The translations under genes and the position numbers were made by a program. The notes under the pieces were generated by a model. It saw only the letters and a list, made by a program, of their open reading frames with translations, made no database searches and had not been told where the DNA came from. 58,281 nt of DNA. Origin: a virus. Lineage: Duplodnaviria > Caudoviricetes. The stretch spans positions 1 through 58,281 of IMG/VR virus record IMGVR_UViG_3300037465_000050; one strand, given 5' to 3'. Of this stretch, positions 7,478-23,830 are shown piece after piece (position 1 is the first letter of the stretch; each line of letters begins with the position of its first letter).

Positions 7478-9304
7478 GTGCCGTCGCTCGCTACAGCTGA
7501 CTTCCTCGCCGAGATGTTCGGCGATCGCGTCGGAGAAGGGCACGAGATCGTGCTCTTTTCCGACAAGCGGTCTACATGGTGCCGCACGATTGGCGACGCA
7601 CTCAAGGCCATTCAACGCCTGAACGAGTCGAACGACACCTATTATCACGTCGCCTTGCATGACCGCGCCACGGCGATTGCAGAGGCTCGTGAGCGCGCTG
7701 CGCGTGAGCAACGACAGGAGCCGAAGTCTGTCAGCGCGACGCGCGGATGTTCGGAGTCAGCTCGCGCGCTGCCTGGAGTATGGGCCGATATCGACATCGC
7801 CGGAGTTGGGCACGAGAAACACGGACTAGCTCCGACGCGCGAGGCAGCGTTGGATGCTTTGGCGAAGATGCCGCTCGTTGCGACAACCGTGCTGTGGACT
7901 GGAGGCGGACTGCACGCATACTGGCGCTTCAGGGAGCTGGAGGACGTCGCGACTAGGGAAGCGCGCGCGATTGCGGCTAACCGCGGTCGCGGATGGCAGC
8001 AGCTCTATACGGCCATCTCGGGTTTCTCGATCGACGCCACGCACGACCTTGCGCGCGTGCTGCGGCTGCCTGGGCTGCGCTCGCACAAGCGCGACGTGAT
8101 CGTAGATGCAATCGTTAGAAATAACGTCGCGTACAATCCTAGCGACTTCGACGAGTACGCCGCATCGGGACCGGAGCCATGCGTGATCGCAGCCGGCTCG
8201 TTCACGCTGCGCGAAGTCGCGTTTCCTCCGCGCGAGAAACTGCGCGCGTTGCTTGATCTTGACGCGCGATTCACCGCGACGTGGATGCGCAAGCGGCGAG
8301 ACCTTCCATCGCAGTCGGAATACGACTTGTCGCTTGCATCGATGGCGTCGCGCGCAGGTTGGAGCGATCAGGAGATCGTAGACCTGCTAATAGCGCACCG
8401 TGCGATGCACGGACAGGAGCCGAAGTTGCGCACGGACTACTACCAGCTCACTCTGGGTCGCGCGCGCTCGGACAGCGCAGCTGATCGAGCTGTAGCGGCG
8501 TTGAACGATGCCGTCTCGCAACCGGCTCAAGCGGCGCAGGCTGGCCCTGTCCGCGCATCTAGTCATTCGCCAAAAGCAAACAGCCAGACTCGGGCCGCAA
8601 GCGCGCCTACGGCAATACAGGCCGCTAGCGGCAACTCTGCTTTTGACCGCGCTACGGCGTTGACGAACGTCTCGACGGTCGTCGGCGCGCGCGTCGAGCG
8701 CGTGCTGAAATACCGCGGCGATCCGCCTTCGTTCGCGATTGAGATCGACGGGATACACGTAACGCTTGGCAGCGTCGACGTGATCTTGAGACCGCGGCAG
8801 TTTCGATCGGTTATTGCCGCGACGTCCGGTCACGTGATGCGCTCGATGAAGGACTCCGCTTGGCAACCGGTCGCGCAGATGCTCCTGCGATTGGCCGAGG
8901 AACAGGACCTCGGTCCAGATTCGAAACCGAGCGATTTGGTGCGCGACTGGCTCGCCGGATACCTGTCGGCATATCCGGTCGAGACGCGAGAGGAGTATCG
9001 CGACGCGACGATCACAGCGCGCAATCCAGTCGAAATCAGCGGCGCGGTCGTGATCTTCCTTGAACCGTTCAGCCAGTGGGTCGTGGCGCACGGGCACCCG
9101 TCGCGCCAGCAGACTATGCGCTCGTGGCTTGCGAAGCACCTGCGCGTGCTTGGCGCGACGACCACGGTTCTCGCGTACTTGCGTCGGCACGGAGACGGCG
9201 AGCGGCACGACATGATGAGAACCACGGCTTTCGGCTGGGTATTGCCCGCCGGGCTGGTATCGACCCGAGAGAAGCGTCCGGCGCGGGCGGAGAGGGCACT
9301 ATGA
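7478..9304 (+). CDS. RepB-type (AEP superfamily) DNA primase / replication protein
   Basis: VWADID, TGGGLHAYW, DLARVLRLPG; helical SQSEYD domain. Confidence 0.85.
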   Translation: MPSLATADFLAEMFGDRVGEGHEIVLFSDKRSTWCRTIGDALKAIQRLNESNDTYYHVALHDRATAIAEARERAAREQRQEPKSVSATRGCSESARALPGVWADIDIAGVGHEKHGLAPTREAALDALAKMPLVATTVLWTGGGLHAYWRFRELEDVATREARAIAANRGRGWQQLYTAISGFSIDATHDLARVLRLPGLRSHKRDVIVDAIVRNNVAYNPSDFDEYAASGPEPCVIAAGSFTLREVAFPPREKLRALLDLDARFTATWMRKRRDLPSQSEYDLSLASMASRAGWSDQEIVDLLIAHRAMHGQEPKLRTDYYQLTLGRARSDSAADRAVAALNDAVSQPAQAAQAGPVRASSHSPKANSQTRAASAPTAIQAASGNSAFDRATALTNVSTVVGARVERVLKYRGDPPSFAIEIDGIHVTLGSVDVILRPRQFRSVIAATSGHVMRSMKDSAWQPVAQMLLRLAEEQDLGPDSKPSDLVRDWLAGYLSAYPVETREEYRDATITARNPVEISGAVVIFLEPFSQWVVAHGHPSRQQTMRSWLAKHLRVLGATTTVLAYLRRHGDGERHDMMRTTAFGWVLPAGLVSTREKRPARAERAL

Positions 9305-9317
9305 TCGAGTTGCGCCG

Positions 9318-9630
9318 CGCCAGGCGGCCTATACGCCAGAATCCCGCCAGGCGGCCTACGGCGCGCTGTGGCGCATCCTTGCCTGGGTACGCCTGGGAGG
9401 CCTACCGGGACTCCGCGCGCGCAGCCGCGGCCCTAGGGCGCGACGTAGGCCATCGTTCGTTTTGCGGCTCCAGTCGGCCTCGCGCGCGCGCGCGCGCGCC
9501 CCTACACATGCGCAAATCAACATCATGTATGCCTTCAAAAAACGGCTAAATATACTAAACGCTAAACAAAGCGGAAAAACCCGATAGAAACTGGCGTCAA
9601 GGGAAAAATGACACTAAAACCGCTATTTAT
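9318..9630. other. Putative replication origin (direct repeats, (CG)9 tract, A-rich unwinding region)
   Basis: CGCCAGGCGGCCTA at 9318 and 9345; (CG)9 at 9481-9498; A-rich 9536-9630; directly after primase. Confidence 0.5.
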
Positions 9631-9666
9631 GGCCGGGCCGCCTCCGGCAGAGTCCCAGGTGGGCCG

Positions 9667-11432
9667 ATGACGCGCCGAGAGTATCGCGTCATCGGTCCGC
9701 CTGGGACTTGAAGACCGGCAAAACGCATGACATGGCGCAGCGCGTCGAGCGTGCCGCCGAGAAGCACGGTGCAAACCGCGTGATGGCAGTCAGCTTCACG
9801 CGCTCTGCTGCCCGCGTCATCGCATCGCGCACAGAACTGCCGCGCGAGAACGTCGGAACGCTCCACGCTCTCGCATACCGCGCGCTCGGTAGACCGACTA
9901 TCGCAGAGACGAAAGCCGACGAGTGGAACGAGCACGTTGACCGCGATCCTGAACTCGCGCTTGATTCCAGCGGAGCGAAGGATGTCGATCTCGATGGAGA
10001 CCGAGTTATCGAGATGCATTACGGAGAAACTAAGACCGGATCCGAAAAGCTATCCGCGATCCAAACGCTGCGCGCGATCGACAGACCTGAACACCTGTGG
10101 CCGGTGGACCTGCTCGATTTCTGGTCGCGATGGAGATCGTGGAAACGTGAAGCGAACTACCTCGACTTCACCGACCTGATCGAAGTCGCCGCGGATATGT
10201 GTCCAACCGCGCCTGGTGATCCGGCGATTTTCTGCGCCGATGAGACGCAGGACTTATCGCCGCTCGAATGGAAGCTAGTGCGCGTATGGGGGGAAGCTGC
10301 TGAGACCGGATTGCTAGTCGCGGCTGACCCAGCCCAGTGCATCTACAACTGGAAAGGCGCATCACCGCGCTTGTTCTTCGAGCCGCCGATCCCAGCAGAG
10401 GACTATCGCGTGCTGCGCCAATCCTTCCGCGTTCCGCGCCGAGTCCACGCGCGCGCGGTGTCGTGGCTTGCACAATCGCAGAGCGACGTAATGCACGAGT
10501 ATCTGCCGCGTGACGCCGACGGAGCGGTGCGCAGGATGCCGAGCGGTGGACCGTCCGCGTCTACGTGGCAGTCACCGCGTGTTATCGCCGAGATCGCGGC
10601 TGCTGACGCTCGCAAGACTGGTCGTACGCATATGATCGTCGCGAGCTGCGCGTACATGCTCCAGCCGCTGCTGCGCGAACTACGCGAACTCGGCGAGCCG
10701 TTCCACAACCCGTATCGCCTTGCTGCCGGCGCCTGGAATCCGATGCGCGGAGCAACTGAACGCCTCGTTGACTTCCTAGGTCCAGTGCGTCCGGACCTAG
10801 TTCGAGCCGAATCTGCAACCCGTGCCCTGCCCATTTGGGCCGATAGCGACTCTTCTCAAAGCGCAAGAGAAGGCCAGGAGCAGCTAGGAAGACAACGCCT
10901 GTGGACCTGGACGGAACTGTGGAGCTGGGTGTCGGAGCTGCGTGCATCGGACACGATCAGGCACGGAGCAAAGGTCGAACTTGAAGAACGAGCGAAGGCC
11001 GACGCAAGGCGACCGATCGACGATCGTGATCCTGTCAGCGCATCCGAGCTTCGTCGCATCCTGGAGCCTGGGGCGCATGAGCAGCTCAAGCGCGATCTAC
11101 AGACCGACCGACCGTGGACATTCATCGCCGAGCGGCTTCTACCTTCACGCACGAAGCTGTGGAGATACGCACTCAACGTCGCTGATAAGCGCGGAGCTAG
11201 CGCGCTACTCGAACGGCCGAAACTGATTATAGGCACGATTCATAGCGTCAAAGGCGGCGAGGCCGACTGTGTATGGGTATGGCCTGACCTGTCTCCATCG
11301 GCGCACGCGCAATGGTCCGGCGGAGACGATGGCCGTGACGCAATCACGAGGACGTTCTACGTGGCGATGACCAGGGCGCGCGAGGAGCTTGTGCTCTGCG
11401 GTGCATCTGGACCGATGGCGGTGGACTGGTAG
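9667..11432 (+). CDS. UvrD/Rep-like SF1 helicase with Walker A interrupted by an 8-nt insert containing TGA
   Basis: MTRREYRVIGPPGT (9667-9708), stop, then TGKT in another frame; VSFTRSAA, GTLHALAY, DETQD, DPAQCIY, TIHSVKGGEAD, FYVAMTRARE. Confidence 0.85.
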
Positions 11433-11457
11433 AGATGGAACAAAAGGAGCGTGAATC

Positions 11458-12000
11458 GTGGTTTTATCTCTCGCCAAGTACCTGGACATGAGGCCGGACA
11501 CGCAACAACGGCTGAGATACTGGGAGTGGATCCGCCGCGGAGTCACCCAGGAGCAGGTCGCCAAGGCGCAGGAGGTCATCGGGAGATATACACCCGATGG
11601 CGTGCGCCGGCTGAAGGCCAATCTCCCGGAGTGGGCCGATGCAACGGACGTGCGCGACTACGTCGCAGCCGAGATCGCGCTGGCATTTGAGACGGAGGTG
11701 GACCGCGCCATCACGACCACGTCGACGTATGTCCGCGTCGCGAATGGCGGCCGGATCAGGTTCGCTGATCATCGCGGATCTGGCCGTCTGGCGCGGTCGC
11801 CGCACGACGTATTCGACGTCGCCCGCGACCTGGACCGCGCGGTGCGGGCGGCGCTGTCCGACACGCTGTCGTACGCGTGCGTGCTGTCCTGGCAGCAGAT
11901 CGAAGCACGGCTTCCGATCCGCGATGAAGAGGCCGCCGCCAGGGCGTCCGCGTTGATCGCGCAAGCACAGGGCGCGTCCACGCAGCCAACGGGCGGATAG
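11458..12000 (+). CDS. Hypothetical protein
   Basis: AAGGAG SD; 180-aa ORF with STYV...IRFADH motif. Confidence 0.65.
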   Translation: MVLSLAKYLDMRPDTQQRLRYWEWIRRGVTQEQVAKAQEVIGRYTPDGVRRLKANLPEWADATDVRDYVAAEIALAFETEVDRAITTTSTYVRVANGGRIRFADHRGSGRLARSPHDVFDVARDLDRAVRAALSDTLSYACVLSWQQIEARLPIRDEEAAARASALIAQAQGASTQPTGG

Positions 12001-12675: not shown

Positions 12676-12972
12676 ATGAAGAAGAAACTTAAATACGTCA
12701 TCGTCCGAACATTCTCGGCCGGCGTGTTCGCTGGAGAACTGGAGTCGCGCAAAGGGCGCGAGGTCGTGCTCCGCAACGCCCGCCGAATCTGGTACTGGGC
12801 AGGGGCGGCTTCGCTGTCCGAGCTGGCGGTGCATGGCACGAGCAAGCCGGCAGAGTGCAAGTTCCCGGTGGCCGTCGATCGTATCGAGCTCCTCGAAGCC
12901 ATCGAAATCCTCGACGTGACGCCCGCCGCGCGCAAGTCGATCGAGGAGGTGCCGGTGTGGTCAGCGAAGTGA
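12676..12972 (+). CDS. DUF6948-like phage protein
   Basis: [14 protein letters not shown]...[20 protein letters not shown]; AAGGA SD. Confidence 0.8.
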
Positions 12973-13322
12973 AGGGCTCGGGCTGTGGCTCGGGCTGTGG
13001 CTCGGGCTCGGGCTTGGGCTCGGGCGATGAATCGGGCTCGGGCGATGGCTCAGGCTCGGGCTTGGGCTTGGGCTGGGGCTCGGGCTTGGGCTTGGGCTCG
13101 GGCGATGAATCGGGCTCGGGCGATCGCTCGGGCTGGGGCTCGGGCTCGGGCTGGGGCTCGGGTGATGACTCGGGCTGGGGCTCGGGCTCGGGCTCGGGCT
13201 CGGGCGATGGCTCGGGCTCGGGCTCGGGCTGGGGCTCGGGTGATGGCTGGGGCTCGGGTGATGGCTGGGGCTGGGGCTGGGGCTGGGGCTCGGGTAGCGG
13301 AACCGCGCAGGAGCAACCATGA
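12957..13322 (+). CDS. Gly/Ser/Trp/Asp low-complexity (G-X)n protein
   Basis: GAGGAGG SD before GTG 12957; GGCTCG/GGCTGG 6-bp repeats. Confidence 0.65.
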
Positions 13323-13627
13323 GCCGCGACGCGCTGCGCCAACTCGAAGCACCCTGCACGTGCGATACAGAACAACCGGGGCGTAGGCTAGGTGGAGCAG
13401 ACCAACCGCAGACGTGCGGCAGCGCAGGTTCGAGTCCTGCCGCCCCGACCATCAAGCAACTGCGCGCCAAGCTGCGCCGGCTCGATCGCGCGATTCAGCG
13501 CCTTGACGACCAGAGGCGACTTGACGATCTGCTGCGCGTCGAGGATGCGCGCGCTCGCCGAACACGCGCCTTCCGCGACGCCGCGCGCAAGCGCGTGAGG
13601 CTGGAGATCAAGAGGAGGAAGCCGTGA
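13319..13627 (+). CDS. Hypothetical protein (basic coiled-coil C-terminus), overlaps tRNA-like element
   Basis: AGGAG SD and ATGA coupling. Confidence 0.5.
13377..13451 (+). ncRNA. tRNA-like element (tRNA-Pro-like acceptor) with anticodon loop reduced to a 4-nt loop
   Basis: 7-bp acceptor CGGGGCG/CGCCCCG, U8A9, T-arm GCAGG-TTCGAGT-CCTGC, A discriminator plus CCA; anticodon stem CCGCA/TGCGG closes GACG. Confidence 0.7.
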
Positions 13628-18970: not shown

Positions 18971-19366
18971 ATGGCCTTCGTAGCGTACCGAGCGACGACG
19001 TTCGATCTGACCGGCACAAACGACATACAGCGCGGGTCGACATTCGTCGCAATCTTTCAGGTCAAGGACGCAGCCGGTAATCCGCAGAACCTCTCTGAAT
19101 GGGTCGCGTACAGTGCGACTCCAGTTTGCCAGTTCAAGACCGACTACGATCCGCCTGGTGTTACCACAGGCTGCCCGCAGCCGACGATGAGCTACCTCAA
19201 CGGCGGAGTTGCCGGTGAAATCCAGATGGTGATCGATGCCTCTGCGACTGCCAGTGCCTCGGTATCGTCAGGGCGATACGACATCGAGATCAGGTATTCC
19301 TCCACGGAGCGCACGCGCGTCTTCGAGGGCGCGTGGACGATCGACAAGGAGGTCACTACGTCGTGA
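18971..19366 (+). CDS. BppU-N-like Ig-fold virion adaptor protein
   Basis: IQRGSTF...KDAAGNPQNLS...GEIQM...YDIEI...RVFEG...EVT pattern; AAGGAG SD. Confidence 0.65.
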   Translation: MAFVAYRATTFDLTGTNDIQRGSTFVAIFQVKDAAGNPQNLSEWVAYSATPVCQFKTDYDPPGVTTGCPQPTMSYLNGGVAGEIQMVIDASATASASVSSGRYDIEIRYSSTERTRVFEGAWTIDKEVTTS

Positions 19367-20970
19367 CGGAAGTTGTCAAGACCGAGACCGCTGGGACCGT
19401 GGTCGGTCCGCCGATTACGGCCGGCACCGTAACGTCGCTCGTCGAGACGCAGATCAATACCGCGGTGCGTCAGTCGGCCGAGCGCCTGAACGTCGTCGTG
19501 ATCCTGCTCGATGACGTCGGCCGCGAGGAGATCGGCTGGTACGGGCTCGGTGCTGACGTGGCGCCGACTCCGCGTCTCGATGGATTCCGAGCCAAGGGTG
19601 TGACGTTCACGAATGCTTATGCGTACCCTATTTGCGGTCCGACACGCGCGGCCGTCCATACAGGCGTGTACGGAAAAGGAACCGGCCTGGCGGCGAACAT
19701 CGAGGCGGATGATACGTGGTATCGGCTAGCGGACAGCAACGTCCTGCTTCCTGAGATTCTTTCAATAGGCTGTGGGGTCGGTCTCTACGCACGCGGTACA
19801 TTCGGCAAGTGGCATATGTGCGGGTATCAGGGACAGGACTCGCATCCGTTCGACAACGGTTACGCGAGGTTCTTCGGCTGTATCCCGAACGCGGGTAGCG
19901 ATGAATCGCTCGGATACTATAATGGGCACGGGCATTTCCGCTGGCGCAAGGTGACTGGTCCTACGGCGTCAGCTTACGTGCCTGCTGGCTACGATCCTGC
20001 CACGTACCCGGGATATCCAGACGCGTTTGCGTACGACTACACTACGTGGGACGCATCGACGAACGTGCGTGATGCGCTTGCATGGATCAACACGCGCACG
20101 ACGCCATTCATCTGCTACCTGCCGCTGAACCCGCCGCACTCGCCGTTCGAGCGTCCGCCGAACACGATCCTGGACAACGTCGGGGTTGGCGCGACTGGCA
20201 CGAACATCGATCTCGTCAGCTCGACGACGAAGACGGCGCTCGATGGAGCGGGGCTCGGCGTAGGCGAGGTCGCGGCGGTCGGTCAGGAGCGGCTCGTCTT
20301 CAAGGCGAATTTGGAGGCTGTCGACACGCTGATCGGCCTTCTGTACGACCGCATGGATCCGACGAAGCGCGCGTCAACTGTGTTCGTGGTCTGGGGAGAC
20401 AACGGCACGCCGGCGACGGTGATCCAGTCGCCGTACGATCCGTTACACGCCAAGCGGACGCTTTACGAGCAAGGTCTGTGGGTTCCGGCGTTGATCTTTT
20501 CTGACTCTCCGGTCATAACGGCGCCAAATCGGAACAGCTCGGCGCTCGTCCATGCAGTCGATCTGTGCCGTACGATCGGCGATCTGTGCCTCGTGGATTG
20601 GTCATTGCTTGACGAGACGGTCGCGCGCGACTCGATATCTCTTGTTCCGATCCTGCGCAACCCGTCAGCATCGTCGCCGCGCACGCGGATCTACGCTGAG
20701 TTATTTTCTCCGCTCGGCGGTCCGCCAGACTCGGATGCGTGGTACACGGTGCTTTCAGACGGCACGTACAAGGTATTTTTTTCGCCAGGTGGCACGATTC
20801 GTTTCTTCCGGATCGGTACCACGCCAGGCTTCTCGACCGGCCTGCCGGGCTATCGTGAGATGGACGCAGACGATTACATGACGGTATCGCAATCGACTTG
20901 GCCGGCTGCGGTACAGAGTGCATATGCGACGCTGTCGAGCGAGATTGTGGCAGTGATGGCCGAGCCCTGA
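19363..20970 (+). CDS. Formylglycine-dependent sulfatase with short N-terminal beta-rich extension
   Basis: NVVVILLDDVG, CGPTRAAVHTG (CxPxR), FGKWH, PHSP, GDNG, KRTLYEQG..VP; GTGA coupling to adaptor gene. Confidence 0.92.
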   Translation: MTEVVKTETAGTVVGPPITAGTVTSLVETQINTAVRQSAERLNVVVILLDDVGREEIGWYGLGADVAPTPRLDGFRAKGVTFTNAYAYPICGPTRAAVHTGVYGKGTGLAANIEADDTWYRLADSNVLLPEILSIGCGVGLYARGTFGKWHMCGYQGQDSHPFDNGYARFFGCIPNAGSDESLGYYNGHGHFRWRKVTGPTASAYVPAGYDPATYPGYPDAFAYDYTTWDASTNVRDALAWINTRTTPFICYLPLNPPHSPFERPPNTILDNVGVGATGTNIDLVSSTTKTALDGAGLGVGEVAAVGQERLVFKANLEAVDTLIGLLYDRMDPTKRASTVFVVWGDNGTPATVIQSPYDPLHAKRTLYEQGLWVPALIFSDSPVITAPNRNSSALVHAVDLCRTIGDLCLVDWSLLDETVARDSISLVPILRNPSASSPRTRIYAELFSPLGGPPDSDAWYTVLSDGTYKVFFSPGGTIRFFRIGTTPGFSTGLPGYREMDADDYMTVSQSTWPAAVQSAYATLSSEIVAVMAEP

Positions 20971-21331: not shown

Positions 21332-22177
21332 GTGGCACGAATGACTGGACGCAGGCAGATCAAGGGAGAAATCGGCGACGGCGCGCCCGATGTCGTCGCC
21401 GGCTTGCAGATCGAGCGCGTGGCGATCGCGTCGCTGACGCTTGATCCGAAGAATGCGCGGCTGCATCCCGAGCGCAATATCGCTGCGATCGAGGCGTCGT
21501 TGGCGCGGTTCGGGCAGCGCAAGCCGATCGTCGTCGACAAGGACGGCGTGATCCTGGCCGGCAATGGGACCGTCGAGGCCGCGCGGCGTCTAGGCTGGTC
21601 CGAGATCGATGTTGTACGTACGGACCTTGCTGGTACCGAGGCGCGCGCGTATGCGCTAGCTGACAATCGGACTGCGGAGCTGGCGGAGTGGGATCTATCC
21701 GTACTCAAGTCTACATTGGAAACGTTCGACGATCAGACGCTGGATGAAATCGGATTCAGCGATGATATGCTTGCAGATCTAGTTTCCGAATACGAAGAAA
21801 AAGAGCTAAAGCAAGTATACTCATCTAAGGTTGACTCGCCGATCTATACGCCGAAGCGCGAGACTCCTCCGTCGATTAGCGAGTTATTCGATAGGTCAAA
21901 GACGCATAGCTTAATCGAGAAGATAGAAAATTCTCATCTGCCGCACGATGTGTCTGCTTTCCTGCGGTTTGCTGCTGAGAGGCATACTGTATTCCATTTC
22001 GCAAATATCGCAGAGTTCTATGCACACGCAGATAAGAATGTGCAGCGCCTCATGGAGGATTCTGGATTGGTGATCGTTGATTATAAGAAGGCGATCGAGA
22101 ACGGATTCGTCAGTATCATTAGTACTGTACGTCATTTGGCCGATATCGAGCTTGATCAAGTCGATGATGCGCAATGA
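21332..22177 (+). CDS. ParB-like nuclease domain fused to a C-terminal domain associated with phage glycosyltransferases
   Basis: DPKNARLH, FGQRKPIVVD, ILAGNG, LADNRTAELAEWD; C-terminal FLRFAAERHTVFHFANIAEFYAH. Confidence 0.8.
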   Translation: MARMTGRRQIKGEIGDGAPDVVAGLQIERVAIASLTLDPKNARLHPERNIAAIEASLARFGQRKPIVVDKDGVILAGNGTVEAARRLGWSEIDVVRTDLAGTEARAYALADNRTAELAEWDLSVLKSTLETFDDQTLDEIGFSDDMLADLVSEYEEKELKQVYSSKVDSPIYTPKRETPPSISELFDRSKTHSLIEKIENSHLPHDVSAFLRFAAERHTVFHFANIAEFYAHADKNVQRLMEDSGLVIVDYKKAIENGFVSIISTVRHLADIELDQVDDAQ

Positions 22178-23036
22178 TTTTGCCGCTTTGATCCTGACAC
22201 ACGGGCGACCTGACCGCGTCTACACCTATGACTCGTTGATGCGTTCTGGATATACTGGCAGGTGGTATATCGTTATTGATGACGAGGATAAAACAGCCGG
22301 TGGATATATTGAGAGGTTCGGAAAGGACCACGTTGTTGTATTCAGTAAGGCTGAAATCGCAGCACGGATCGATGAAGGCAATAACTTCCAGGACAGGCGA
22401 GCGATCGTTTACGCGCGCAATGCCTGTTGGGATATTGCAGAGAAAGTCGGAGTGCATTATTTTATGCAGCTAGATGATGATTACACAAACTTTCAATATC
22501 GGTCATCTAATAAAAAAGCTGTATGTGGGCAGCGAATATTGGTCACGATGGATAAGCTGCTATCTGCAATGATTGATTTTTTCGAGCAGACTCAAGCCCT
22601 TGCAGTCGCGATGTTGCAAGGTGGTGATTACATAGGATATGGCAATAAATCACACAAAATAGATCATGGTAGTATCCGCAAGTGCATGAATAGCTGGCTT
22701 TGCAGTGTTGATCGTAAGTTTTCATTTCAAGGCACAATGAATGAAGACGCCACCGCATATAGCCTTGGAGGCCTGCGCGGCAATCTATTCTTATCGATCC
22801 CGTTTACATGCATTGGTCAGGTGCAAACGCAGGCATCTGATGGAGTAATGAGCGAGGTTTACGCTAGGTACGGAACGTACGTCAAAACAATGTATTCCGT
22901 AATCGCTGCGCCGTCATGTTGCAAAGTATCGCTTCTGCGCGATCCGAGATCCAATAATGCGCCGCGCATTCATCACAGAATGATTTACGATGCTACATAT
23001 CCGAAGATCGTTCGAGAAGAGCTTGCAAAATCATGA
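22164..23036 (+). CDS. GREB1/TET-associated-type (TAGT-like) GT-A glycosyltransferase
   Basis: ILTHGRPD, YIVIDDED, YARNACW, QLDDDY, MNSW, MNED motifs; AT-richer than flanks. Confidence 0.75.
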   Translation: MMRNDFAALILTHGRPDRVYTYDSLMRSGYTGRWYIVIDDEDKTAGGYIERFGKDHVVVFSKAEIAARIDEGNNFQDRRAIVYARNACWDIAEKVGVHYFMQLDDDYTNFQYRSSNKKAVCGQRILVTMDKLLSAMIDFFEQTQALAVAMLQGGDYIGYGNKSHKIDHGSIRKCMNSWLCSVDRKFSFQGTMNEDATAYSLGGLRGNLFLSIPFTCIGQVQTQASDGVMSEVYARYGTYVKTMYSVIAAPSCCKVSLLRDPRSNNAPRIHHRMIYDATYPKIVREELAKS

Positions 23037-23830
23037 GCGCAAGTACAGCGACAGTCGTAGTACCGTGGCACCGCGACGAAGAGCGCGATAGCTTCCTGCG
23101 CGAGTGGAAGATCAAGCCAGATAATATCCCGGAGTGGCTGATCCTCCAGCACGATGAAAGGCGAGAAGGCTGCGGCGCAACGAAGAACCGCGGAATCAGC
23201 AAGGCAATGGTGCGCGGTGCTGATATTGTCGTCGTCCTCGATGGCGATTGCTATCCTGGTCCGGAGACTGCTAGCGAGAGCAATCCGTTAGAGCACCACG
23301 TCGCACGCCACGTTTCTGCTCTTAGTCCGCAGCCGGTTCGAATGTTCGAAGTTGTTACTCGTCCACCTTCGCGCGGAACACCGTATAGCCAGCTCGACAT
23401 AACGATGCCGGTTGCCATGAGTATCGGCATGTGGACGGATATCGGAGACTATTGCGCCGTGCGTCAACTTGCGCATAATGCAGTACCGATGCAACTGCTG
23501 CCGCAAATGATCTTCGGTCGATACTTTGCTCTATGCGGAATGAATATTGCATTCCGCCCTGCGGTCTGGCGCGAATGGGCGCAGTTTATCGAAGTTTCGC
23601 GATTCGACGATATCTGGATGGGATGGCTGTTGCAGCGCGAAGCGTATCGTCGTGGCTACTGCTTCAATCTGAACGGTCCGCTGGTAAGGCATTCTCGTCA
23701 GAGCAATGTATGGGCGAACCTCCATGATGAGGCGATATATCTCCAGGCGAGCGAGTCTCTCTGGGCTAGGATTGCTACGCATCCATCCGATGATTACGAG
23801 ACGCTTCGTGGGTTGCTTCCCGTCAGATGA
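23033..23830 (+). CDS. RGP/UDP-arabinopyranose-mutase (GT75)-like GT-A protein
   Basis: LDGDCYP, RGTPY, GMW, LCGMNIAFR, RFDDIWMG, HSRQSNVWANL resemble RGP family motifs. Confidence 0.7.
   Translation: MSASTATVVVPWHRDEERDSFLREWKIKPDNIPEWLILQHDERREGCGATKNRGISKAMVRGADIVVVLDGDCYPGPETASESNPLEHHVARHVSALSPQPVRMFEVVTRPPSRGTPYSQLDITMPVAMSIGMWTDIGDYCAVRQLAHNAVPMQLLPQMIFGRYFALCGMNIAFRPAVWREWAQFIEVSRFDDIWMGWLLQREAYRRGYCFNLNGPLVRHSRQSNVWANLHDEAIYLQASESLWARIATHPSDDYETLRGLLPVR

Follow-up and report, generated by a model that had tools for sequence, protein, structure and literature searches.

A candidate hairpin-assisted translational hop within the Walker A codons of a phage UvrD-like helicase gene

Results

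The interrupted helicase gene

The viral metagenome record IMGVR_UViG_3300037465_000050 (58,281 bp; the whole of this stretch is referred to here as the window) comes from fresh water and has an estimated completeness of 61%. It looks like a tailed phage from its gene set, which includes an SNF2-type helicase, a UvrD-like helicase, a ParB-like protein, terminase, portal, major capsid protein, tape measure and a J-like tail protein. The subject of this study is the UvrD-like helicase gene, the sole interrupted one, as the other long genes of the window are all open. Its Walker A motif (P-loop) is divided between two open reading frames (ORFs) separated by a short coding gap, and the locus is composed of the following elements.

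9667..9708, + strand: ORF1, 14 codons (MTRREYRVIGPPGT) for strand beta-1 and the first five P-loop residues; start ATG 9667-9669; aligns with the N-termini of homologues P0002 and P0004
9706..9708, + strand: take-off codon ACT (Thr); 12.9% of the Thr codons in 14 window genes are ACT
9709..9713, + strand: coding gap TGAAG; TGA 9709-9711, which would occupy the A site at take-off, then AG 9712-9713
9714..9716, + strand: landing codon ACC (Thr), followed by GGC AAA ACG
9717..11432, + strand: ORF2, GKT and the remaining UvrD-like superfamily 1 (SF1) helicase; Pfam match; phrog_1967 DNA helicase

Re-reading of the sequence confirmed this arrangement, which had been described in the initial annotation, and the about 570 intact downstream codons reported there were counted as 572. 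The ORF2 frame (-1/+2 relative to ORF1) is open from ACC 9714 to TAG 11430-11432, and the frame beginning at 9708/9714 reads (L K) T G K T H. Pfam matches in the downstream frame were to UvrD-helicase (PF00580, E 9.5e-14), AAA_19 (PF13245), UvrD_C_2 (PF13538) and UvrD_C (PF13361), as in UvrD/PcrA-like SF1 domains, and the Walker A motif of the helicase is whole only when the gap is skipped. The nearest intact homologue, P0002 (63% identity), has MTHKEVRLIGPPGTGKTF unbroken at its N-terminus, and the corresponding read of the closest intact homologue is MTHKEVRLIGPPGTGKT; a second near intact homologue, P0004, begins with MSHLEYRTIGPPGCGKS. As P0002 reads through unbroken, the window has 8 extra bases within the Walker A codons. 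In agreement with what had been proposed, an 8-nt move from ACT to ACC gives GPPGTGKT exactly as in P0002.

TGA reassignment was considered and rejected. TGA terminates 8 of the 14 long genes of the window phage and is therefore a genuine stop here, and the two frames would stay separate even if it were decoded as an amino acid. A scan of 9250-9800 gave no consensus promoter or terminator, and a tRNA scan of the window found only tRNA-Leu(CAG), at 13377-13451, and no special tRNA. The database protein entry for the window helicase begins at Met 9732; gene callers shorten such helicases, so that the genes may be miscounted as pseudogenes.

The contig of a second assembler, from the probable source run, is the same over 9300-10300, with 0 differences and a word depth of 8.35. 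Agreement of two assemblers at a depth of about 8 rules out an assembler artefact and places the insert in the reads themselves, but the second contig is not independent data.

A hairpin ending at the take-off codon

Folding predictions revealed a long hairpin, not mentioned in the initial annotation, which encloses the start of ORF1 and ends at the take-off codon.

9644..9648, + strand: 5' side of a short, weak outer helix of 5 bp (CCGGC), whose predicted partners are 9713 and 9715-9718, leaving a bulge at 9710-9712
9650..9674, + strand: predicted 5' arm, with a Shine-Dalgarno-like AGGTGGG (9657-9663) and the ATG (9667-9669)
9675..9684, + strand: predicted loop
9685..9709, + strand: predicted 3' arm, codons 7-14 (CGC GTC ATC GGT CCG CCT GGG ACT) plus the T of TGA

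The 25 pairs between 9650-9674 and 9685-9709 comprise 22 Watson-Crick and 3 G.U pairs, the latter possible only in + strand RNA. For 9640-9730 a fold of -57.9 kcal/mol was obtained (z -7.27), and none of 200 dinucleotide shuffles was as good. The end of the helix coincides with the junction between the take-off codon and the stop.

Short inserts at the same site in homologous helicases

A search of homologues for similar inserts at this site had been suggested, and was made with queries blind to the P-loop: the alignment (A2) consisted of eight homologues without their N-terminus, and the search patterns came from later motifs. The A2 scans covered metagenome contigs, viral contigs and species genomes, the best 80 homologues per collection being taken. 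In total, 237 loci were obtained, including L003, a distant locus (32% identity) at a contig edge that was the only result of a single-protein scan of viral contigs. Loci were scored by a family hidden Markov model in three frames as well as by eye. An intact G[PASV][PAS]GxGK[STN] was present in 208 loci, a short insert within those eight codons in 12, and an intein at GPPG/TGK in 2 (L217 and L302, rejected as decayed P-loops for this reason), while 15, among them L003, were unscorable at contig edges. An earlier scan (A1) had used GPPG[TC]GKT as its search pattern; since this is the P-loop itself, intact P-loops are over-represented among its 77 loci, none of which entered any count.

Other searches gave little. 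There was no match of 9400-11500 to 50,697 phage records by megablast, none in a scan with protein P0003 as query, and a pattern for the L190-type insert returned only L190's own contig. The pattern E-[YF]-R-x-F-G-P-P-stop had 5 matches, of which 3 were helicases (L190, L198 and the new L319); the other two, L321 and L322, were rejected as ends of unrelated ORFs with no helicase downstream. Separately, proteins P0003, P0006, P0027, P0036 and P0108 were seen to begin beyond the P-loop or within it (MPGTGKT...), or else to carry a leader that looks out of frame ahead of AGKT, and may, from their sequences, represent further interrupted genes truncated by gene callers.

The carriers are listed below as take-off codon / gap / landing codon and next codon, with the length of the insert.

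Window: ACT / TGAAG / ACC GGC; 8 nt
L167: ACC / TGAAGGT / GCC GGA; 10 nt
L183: CCG / TGAC / TCG GGG; 7 nt
L190: CCT / TGACGGAAAG / ACA GGG; 13 nt
L191: CCA / TAA / CTA GGT; 6 nt
L198: CCT / TGA / CCT GGT; 6 nt
L211: CCG / TAAGAGT / CCG GGT; 10 nt
L212: GGT / TGA / AGC CCA; 6 nt
L219: GGT / T / GAC CCA; 4 nt
L245 and L246: CCG / TA / GCG GG.; 5 nt each
L291: CCT / TGACGGAG / ACA GGA; 11 nt
L298: CCT / TGACGGAAGGGA / ACA GGA; 15 nt
L319: CCT / TGA / CTT GGA; from the pattern scan, outside the frequency counts

In all 13 carriers, counted with the window and representing 10 cassette types, a stop (UGA in 9, UAA in 2, UAG in 2) directly follows the last correct codon; the chance of a stop at that codon is 3/64 per case. 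Insert lengths of 4, 5, 5, 6, 6, 6, 7, 8, 10, 10, 11, 13 and 15 nt fall in all three frames, three being in frame with the stop. A canonical P-loop is obtained in every carrier by an exact skip only, and no one rule of frameshifting or readthrough fits them all. The landing codon equals the take-off codon, with wobble allowed, in the window, L198 and L211, and shares two of three positions with it in seven more.

Lesions of the gene are concentrated at this site. Among the first 160 loci there were about 5 lesions in the roughly 530 codons outside the P-loop (a nonsense codon in L107, frameshifts in L140 and L218, a 2-nt duplication in L227 and a TGA in L167), and 8 of the same loci had a lesion in the eight P-loop codons, a per-codon enrichment of roughly 70-fold. 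No other lesion was found in 12 of the 13 carriers. The one in L167 is an in-frame TGA at about 2845, 120 codons after GKT, at a conserved Trp (..REI*PASV vs. ..xxWPxxV). Judging from the sequences, the position of the inserts, the stop-first rule, the common exact-skip solution and the codon match argue against plain damage.

Two further irregularities were noted in the family. In the intein-bearing L217, an 8-nt tandem duplication (ATAAAGTT twice, at about 2530-2560) lies 20 codons past the P-loop and causes a change of frame from one GTT codon to another, the first of which is not followed by a stop; either plain damage or a further hop, across a rare ATA codon, may account for it. The helicase matches of L246, L184/L186 and L261/L265 span about 2400 nt instead of the usual 1550 or so, the L246 ORF having 814 codons, which suggests an extra insertion of roughly 280 residues elsewhere in the gene, possibly an intein.

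Folding of interrupted and intact genes

For carriers, the folded span was the 70 nt up to and including the take-off codon; for intact controls the same span was folded, taking the best of three end points. The median z was -3.4 for the carriers (n=13) vs. -0.5 for 189 distinct controls (Mann-Whitney p 8.8e-8), and the median fold energy -31.5 vs. -17.6 kcal/mol (Mann-Whitney p 2.5e-5). Values of z <= -3.4 were reached by 7 of 13 carriers and by 0 of 189 controls; the sole first-round control with such a fold (z -7.1) was L190, found on inspection to be an interrupted gene. For the majority of carriers, the distance between the end of the 3' arm and the take-off codon is no more than a few bases. 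L167, L183, L245 and L246 have, in addition, a small stem-loop whose loop contains the stop, as in GGCACC-UGAA-GGUGCC and CCCCG-UAG-CGGGG.

Conservation and transfer of the cassettes

The same 5-nt insert (CCG/TAGCG) and the same hairpin occur in L245 and L246, which come from two metagenome-assembled genomes (MAGs) and have both ORFs open. Their helicases are 66.7% identical, with dN 0.26, dS 2.4 and dN/dS 0.11, so that the insert has been kept in a gene under purifying selection. The cassette region is 77% identical compared with 65-70% for the gene body, which indicates that it diverged along with the gene. All 17 predicted hairpin pairs are kept; in four a single partner has changed (G-C/G.U and A-U/G.U) and in a fifth both have, in a compensatory way (U-A to G-C), the G.U pairs pointing to selection on the sense-strand RNA. 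The two loci as a clade were not rejected (p-AU 0.30), and the tree does not fix their order with the intact L179. Among the sequences at hand, this conservation is the strongest sign that translation crosses the gap in such genes.

A different history was found for L190, L291 and L298. These have an almost identical hairpin, with one compensatory pair, and inserts that start alike (CCT TGA CGGA), with gaps of 13, 11 and 15 nt; the helicases are 60-65% identical (dN/dS 0.21-0.29). Their grouping as a clade was rejected (p-AU 4e-46), and L291 is 80% identical to the intact L312. In DNA alignments with intact kin, only the insert and a segment of about 34 nt (5' arm and loop) differ, and the flanks follow the kin. 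One cassette in three non-sister genes, with flanks like those of intact kin, indicates passage between genes by recombination, i.e. horizontal transfer.

Homing endonucleases and inteins at the P-loop

L167 and L245 each have a gene for an HNH endonuclease as the immediate upstream neighbour of the helicase (HNH_3, E 6.7e-9, in L167; HNH, E 7e-4, in L245, where the motif is visible in the translation). HNH matches were thus found in upstream short ORFs of 2 of 4 scanned carriers vs. 0 of 58 from other loci, where the scan took in ORFs up to about 330 residues, longer ones being included only for four carrier ORFs. In the window, a record estimated to be 61% complete, no mobA-like gene was found, 107 ORFs giving no match at E <= 1e-4 to the HNH, GIY-YIG or LAGLIDADG families. 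The two inteins (L302:57-2558 and L217:1968-2579) lie between GPPG and TGK[ST], start with CLA..., end with ...IVHN and have Thr at +1; that of L302 has about 280 residues with an HNH-like stretch, and that of L217 is a mini-intein of about 150 residues.

HNH neighbours and inteins at the same P-loop mark its conserved DNA as a homing nuclease target in this helicase family. By analogy with T4 gene 60, whose insert has been proposed to block endonuclease cutting (PMC5009743; 10.1101/2022.08.31.505936, in the parts dealing with its origin), the inserts most likely arose, and in relatives spread, by destroying the site at which homing endonucleases or inteins recognize the P-loop codons. The initial annotation had proposed an element gating helicase synthesis. 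Its reading as a bypass element gained support from the 12 of 237 homologues with other stop-first inserts, the coupled hairpins and the one insert kept under purifying selection; for the origin, protection from endonucleases would fit the data better than regulation.

Discussion

Proposed reading across the gap

We propose that the window helicase is read by a short hairpin-assisted translational hop from ACU to ACC, to which we assign, on the sequence evidence above, a probability of about 0.6. The ribosome would start at AUG 9667 and make 14 codons, being slowed before take-off by Pro-Pro-Gly, a ribosome-stalling motif. It would pause with peptidyl-tRNA-Thr on ACU 9706-9708 and UGA in the A site, at which point the 25 nt just translated would be complementary to 25 nt already out of the ribosome. 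About nine bases of the 3' arm would lie outside the ribosome, free to pair with the 5' arm, and the helix would gain one pair for every base of slippage, so that the hairpin zipping up behind the ribosome could pull the mRNA forward. One tRNA with a GGU anticodon reads both ACT and ACC by standard wobble; it would leave ACU, where the third position is a G.U pair, and re-pair 8 nt further on at ACC with a G-C pair. Decoding would restart at GGC AAA ACG and yield a helicase with the canonical GPPGTGKT loop.

A wider proposal can be offered more tentatively, as something short of an even chance: phage UvrD-like helicases may host tiny mobile recoding cassettes, made up of a sense-strand hairpin ending at take-off, a stop and a 1-12-nt gap, which would guard the P-loop codons from homing endonucleases and inteins and be read by hairpin-driven hops of 4-15 nt.

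Weighing of alternative explanations

Several observations weigh against the hop. The nascent chain at take-off has 14 residues, too short for a tunnel signal of the gene 60 type, and the window has no predicted counterpart of the small stem-loop that holds the stop at take-off in L167, L183, L245 and L246. The perfect 25-bp helix over the Shine-Dalgarno sequence and AUG should hinder initiation once formed, and a helix of this length could be a substrate for RNase III. The codons match poorly in the cassette of L190, L291 and L298 (CCU vs. ACA), and a degenerate pattern for the window-type insert had 0 matches in the viral collection. Further difficulties lie in the family: the helicase may be dispensable, as the gene is broken elsewhere in L107, L140, L218 and L227, and L167 with its second stop may be decaying. 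In the helicase tree (156 rows) 12 changes are needed for 12 scattered carriers, most of which have closer intact relatives; most inserts could therefore be recent, which makes an open downstream frame weak evidence.

The scatter of the carriers among closer intact relatives and the second stop of L167 would be accounted for if the interrupted gene were a dead or dying allele, in which a scar or protection mark of a homing endonuclease or intein, spread by gene conversion, has knocked out a dispensable helicase whose frame is open only through recent origin; recent inserts would fit a selfish knock-out that is lost again. The transfer of one cassette into three non-sister genes that differ from intact kin in only about 34 nt plus the insert, the lesions elsewhere in the family, and the HNH genes and inteins at the site also agree with it. 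A scar gives no reason, however, for an in-frame stop coming first in 13 of 13 cases, for a strong sense-strand hairpin with G.U pairs and compensatory changes, or for 2-3 matching codon positions. It is also at odds with the absence of a second lesion in 12 of the 13 carriers and with L245 and L246, which are past silent-site saturation with a dN/dS of 0.11 and still have the insert. We regard loss of function as an unlikely explanation, though a more probable one than the other alternatives.

The remaining explanations, even taken jointly, are unlikely. Termination at UGA could be followed by re-initiation at UUG 9708, which overlaps the stop (T-TGA) and opens a 574-codon frame, or at AUG 9732; the product would be without beta-1 and the first half of the P-loop, losing the EYRVxGPPG that all 208 intact relatives keep. 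Alternatively, a -1 frameshift would yield GPPGTLKTGKT, which had been said to break the P-loop. It does depart from the family form, intact in 208 of 208, but GTLKTGKT still fits the minimal GxxxxGK[ST], so that this part of the claim was too strict. There is no slippery heptamer (X XXY YYZ) in CCT GGG ACT TGA, and neither process explains the relatives with in-frame stops (L191, L198, L212, L298 and L319) or the 4-15-nt inserts in other frames; we consider both quite improbable. Only a slight chance is given to a DNA-level on/off switch or a population mixture, in which a minority of genomes would lose the 8 bases precisely between the GAC repeats and supply the helicase. The direct repeat GAC-TTGAA-GAC is there at 9705-9715, and a minority form could exist, since contigs drop rare variants. 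Against this, a repeat of 3 nt is poorly suited to frequent precise excision, the one run examined shows the interrupted form only, and the hairpin and the stop-first rule would be left unexplained. The assembly error allowed for in the initial annotation did not hold up. The record is a single metagenomic contig of modest depth, but the same sequence was obtained from two assemblers, an 8-nt non-repetitive insertion is an unusual type of error, and analogous inserts occur in 12 loci of other samples, two MAGs having one such insert in common; a sequencing or assembly artefact is thus hardly credible.

Relation to known bypassing systems

The hop proposed here would belong to a kind of recoding, natural translational bypassing, that is known from very few systems. 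Features shared with T4 gene 60, as far as the sections on its anatomy go, are one tRNA reading take-off and landing codons, a stop directly after take-off and a 5' hairpin stem (10.1101/2022.08.31.505936; PMC5009743). Among gene 60 homologues, too, hops from a U-ending to a C-ending codon are reported (10.1101/2022.08.31.505936). The likeness to gene 60 claimed initially thus stands for the matched codons and the position of the stop, and fails for the gap of 50 nt, the stem-loop at take-off and the extended signal in the nascent peptide. The window has a gap of 5 nt, corresponding to a move of 8 nt, and no sequence homology to gene 60, and its 5' hairpin is much longer and covers the Shine-Dalgarno sequence and AUG. 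Some relatives of the window recall the gene 60/mobA cassette in the HNH endonuclease link and the horizontal spread reported for it in parts of the same two accounts (10.1101/2022.08.31.505936; PMC5009743), whereas no endonuclease gene was found in the window. Forward bypassing in gene 60 has been proposed to be driven by pairing within the mRNA as it emerges from the ribosome (10.1101/2024.12.09.627546, Wills et al.).

Synthetic stop-hops in E. coli, with matched codons flanking a stop, were engineered and inefficient (Weiss et al. 1987, as summarized in a passage of PMC5009743). They resemble the present family as short-range hops over a stop between matched codons, CCU UGA CCU of L198 having exactly that form; in contrast, the elements described here are natural, have a dedicated hairpin and are mostly frame-changing. 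The byp elements of Magnusiomyces capitatus mitochondria are 27-55 nt long. They are mobile and are read across by translation, as is proposed for the present inserts; unlike these they occupy 81 sites in many genes, rely on an unused A-site codon and depend on mitochondrial ribosomes (PMC5009743, section on byps). A candidate bypass in the terminase of Streptomyces phage Hau3 is similar to the window in being a short predicted coding gap in a phage ATPase gene; it concerns another gene and host group and a UUA hungry codon, not a stop (PMC5009743, in its account of Hau3). The relevant part of the review by Atkins et al. (2016) states that no natural in-frame stop-hop was known and that short-range counterparts of gene 60 had 'long been presumed' (PMC5009743). 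In the main text of the gene 60 homologue preprint the terms helicase, Walker and P-loop have 0 occurrences (10.1101/2022.08.31.505936), and our full-text literature search gave no paper on short bypass gaps in phage helicase or Walker A codons.

The element, about 90 nt long and found in ten natural variants, would make a compact test system. As these differ in gap length, frame, codon match and hairpin strength, what drives the forward movement of a hopping ribosome becomes directly testable.

Additional features of the window

Between a primase-like gene and the helicase start, 362 nt (9305-9666) are without a convincing ORF, and an A+T-rich part at about 9520-9625 stands out in a genome of 63% G+C. 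A low-complexity repeat at 12855-13451, Gly/Ser-rich on the + strand and Pro/Glu-rich on the - strand, directly precedes the tRNA-Leu(CAG) gene. Further along, a row at 21332-23827 encodes a ParB-like nuclease/partition protein, a TET-associated glycosyltransferase (PF20691, E 7e-30) and an RGP-like glycosyltransferase, a gene set that hints at DNA base hypermodification. Just upstream of it lies a gene for a sulfatase-family protein, at 19333-20967.

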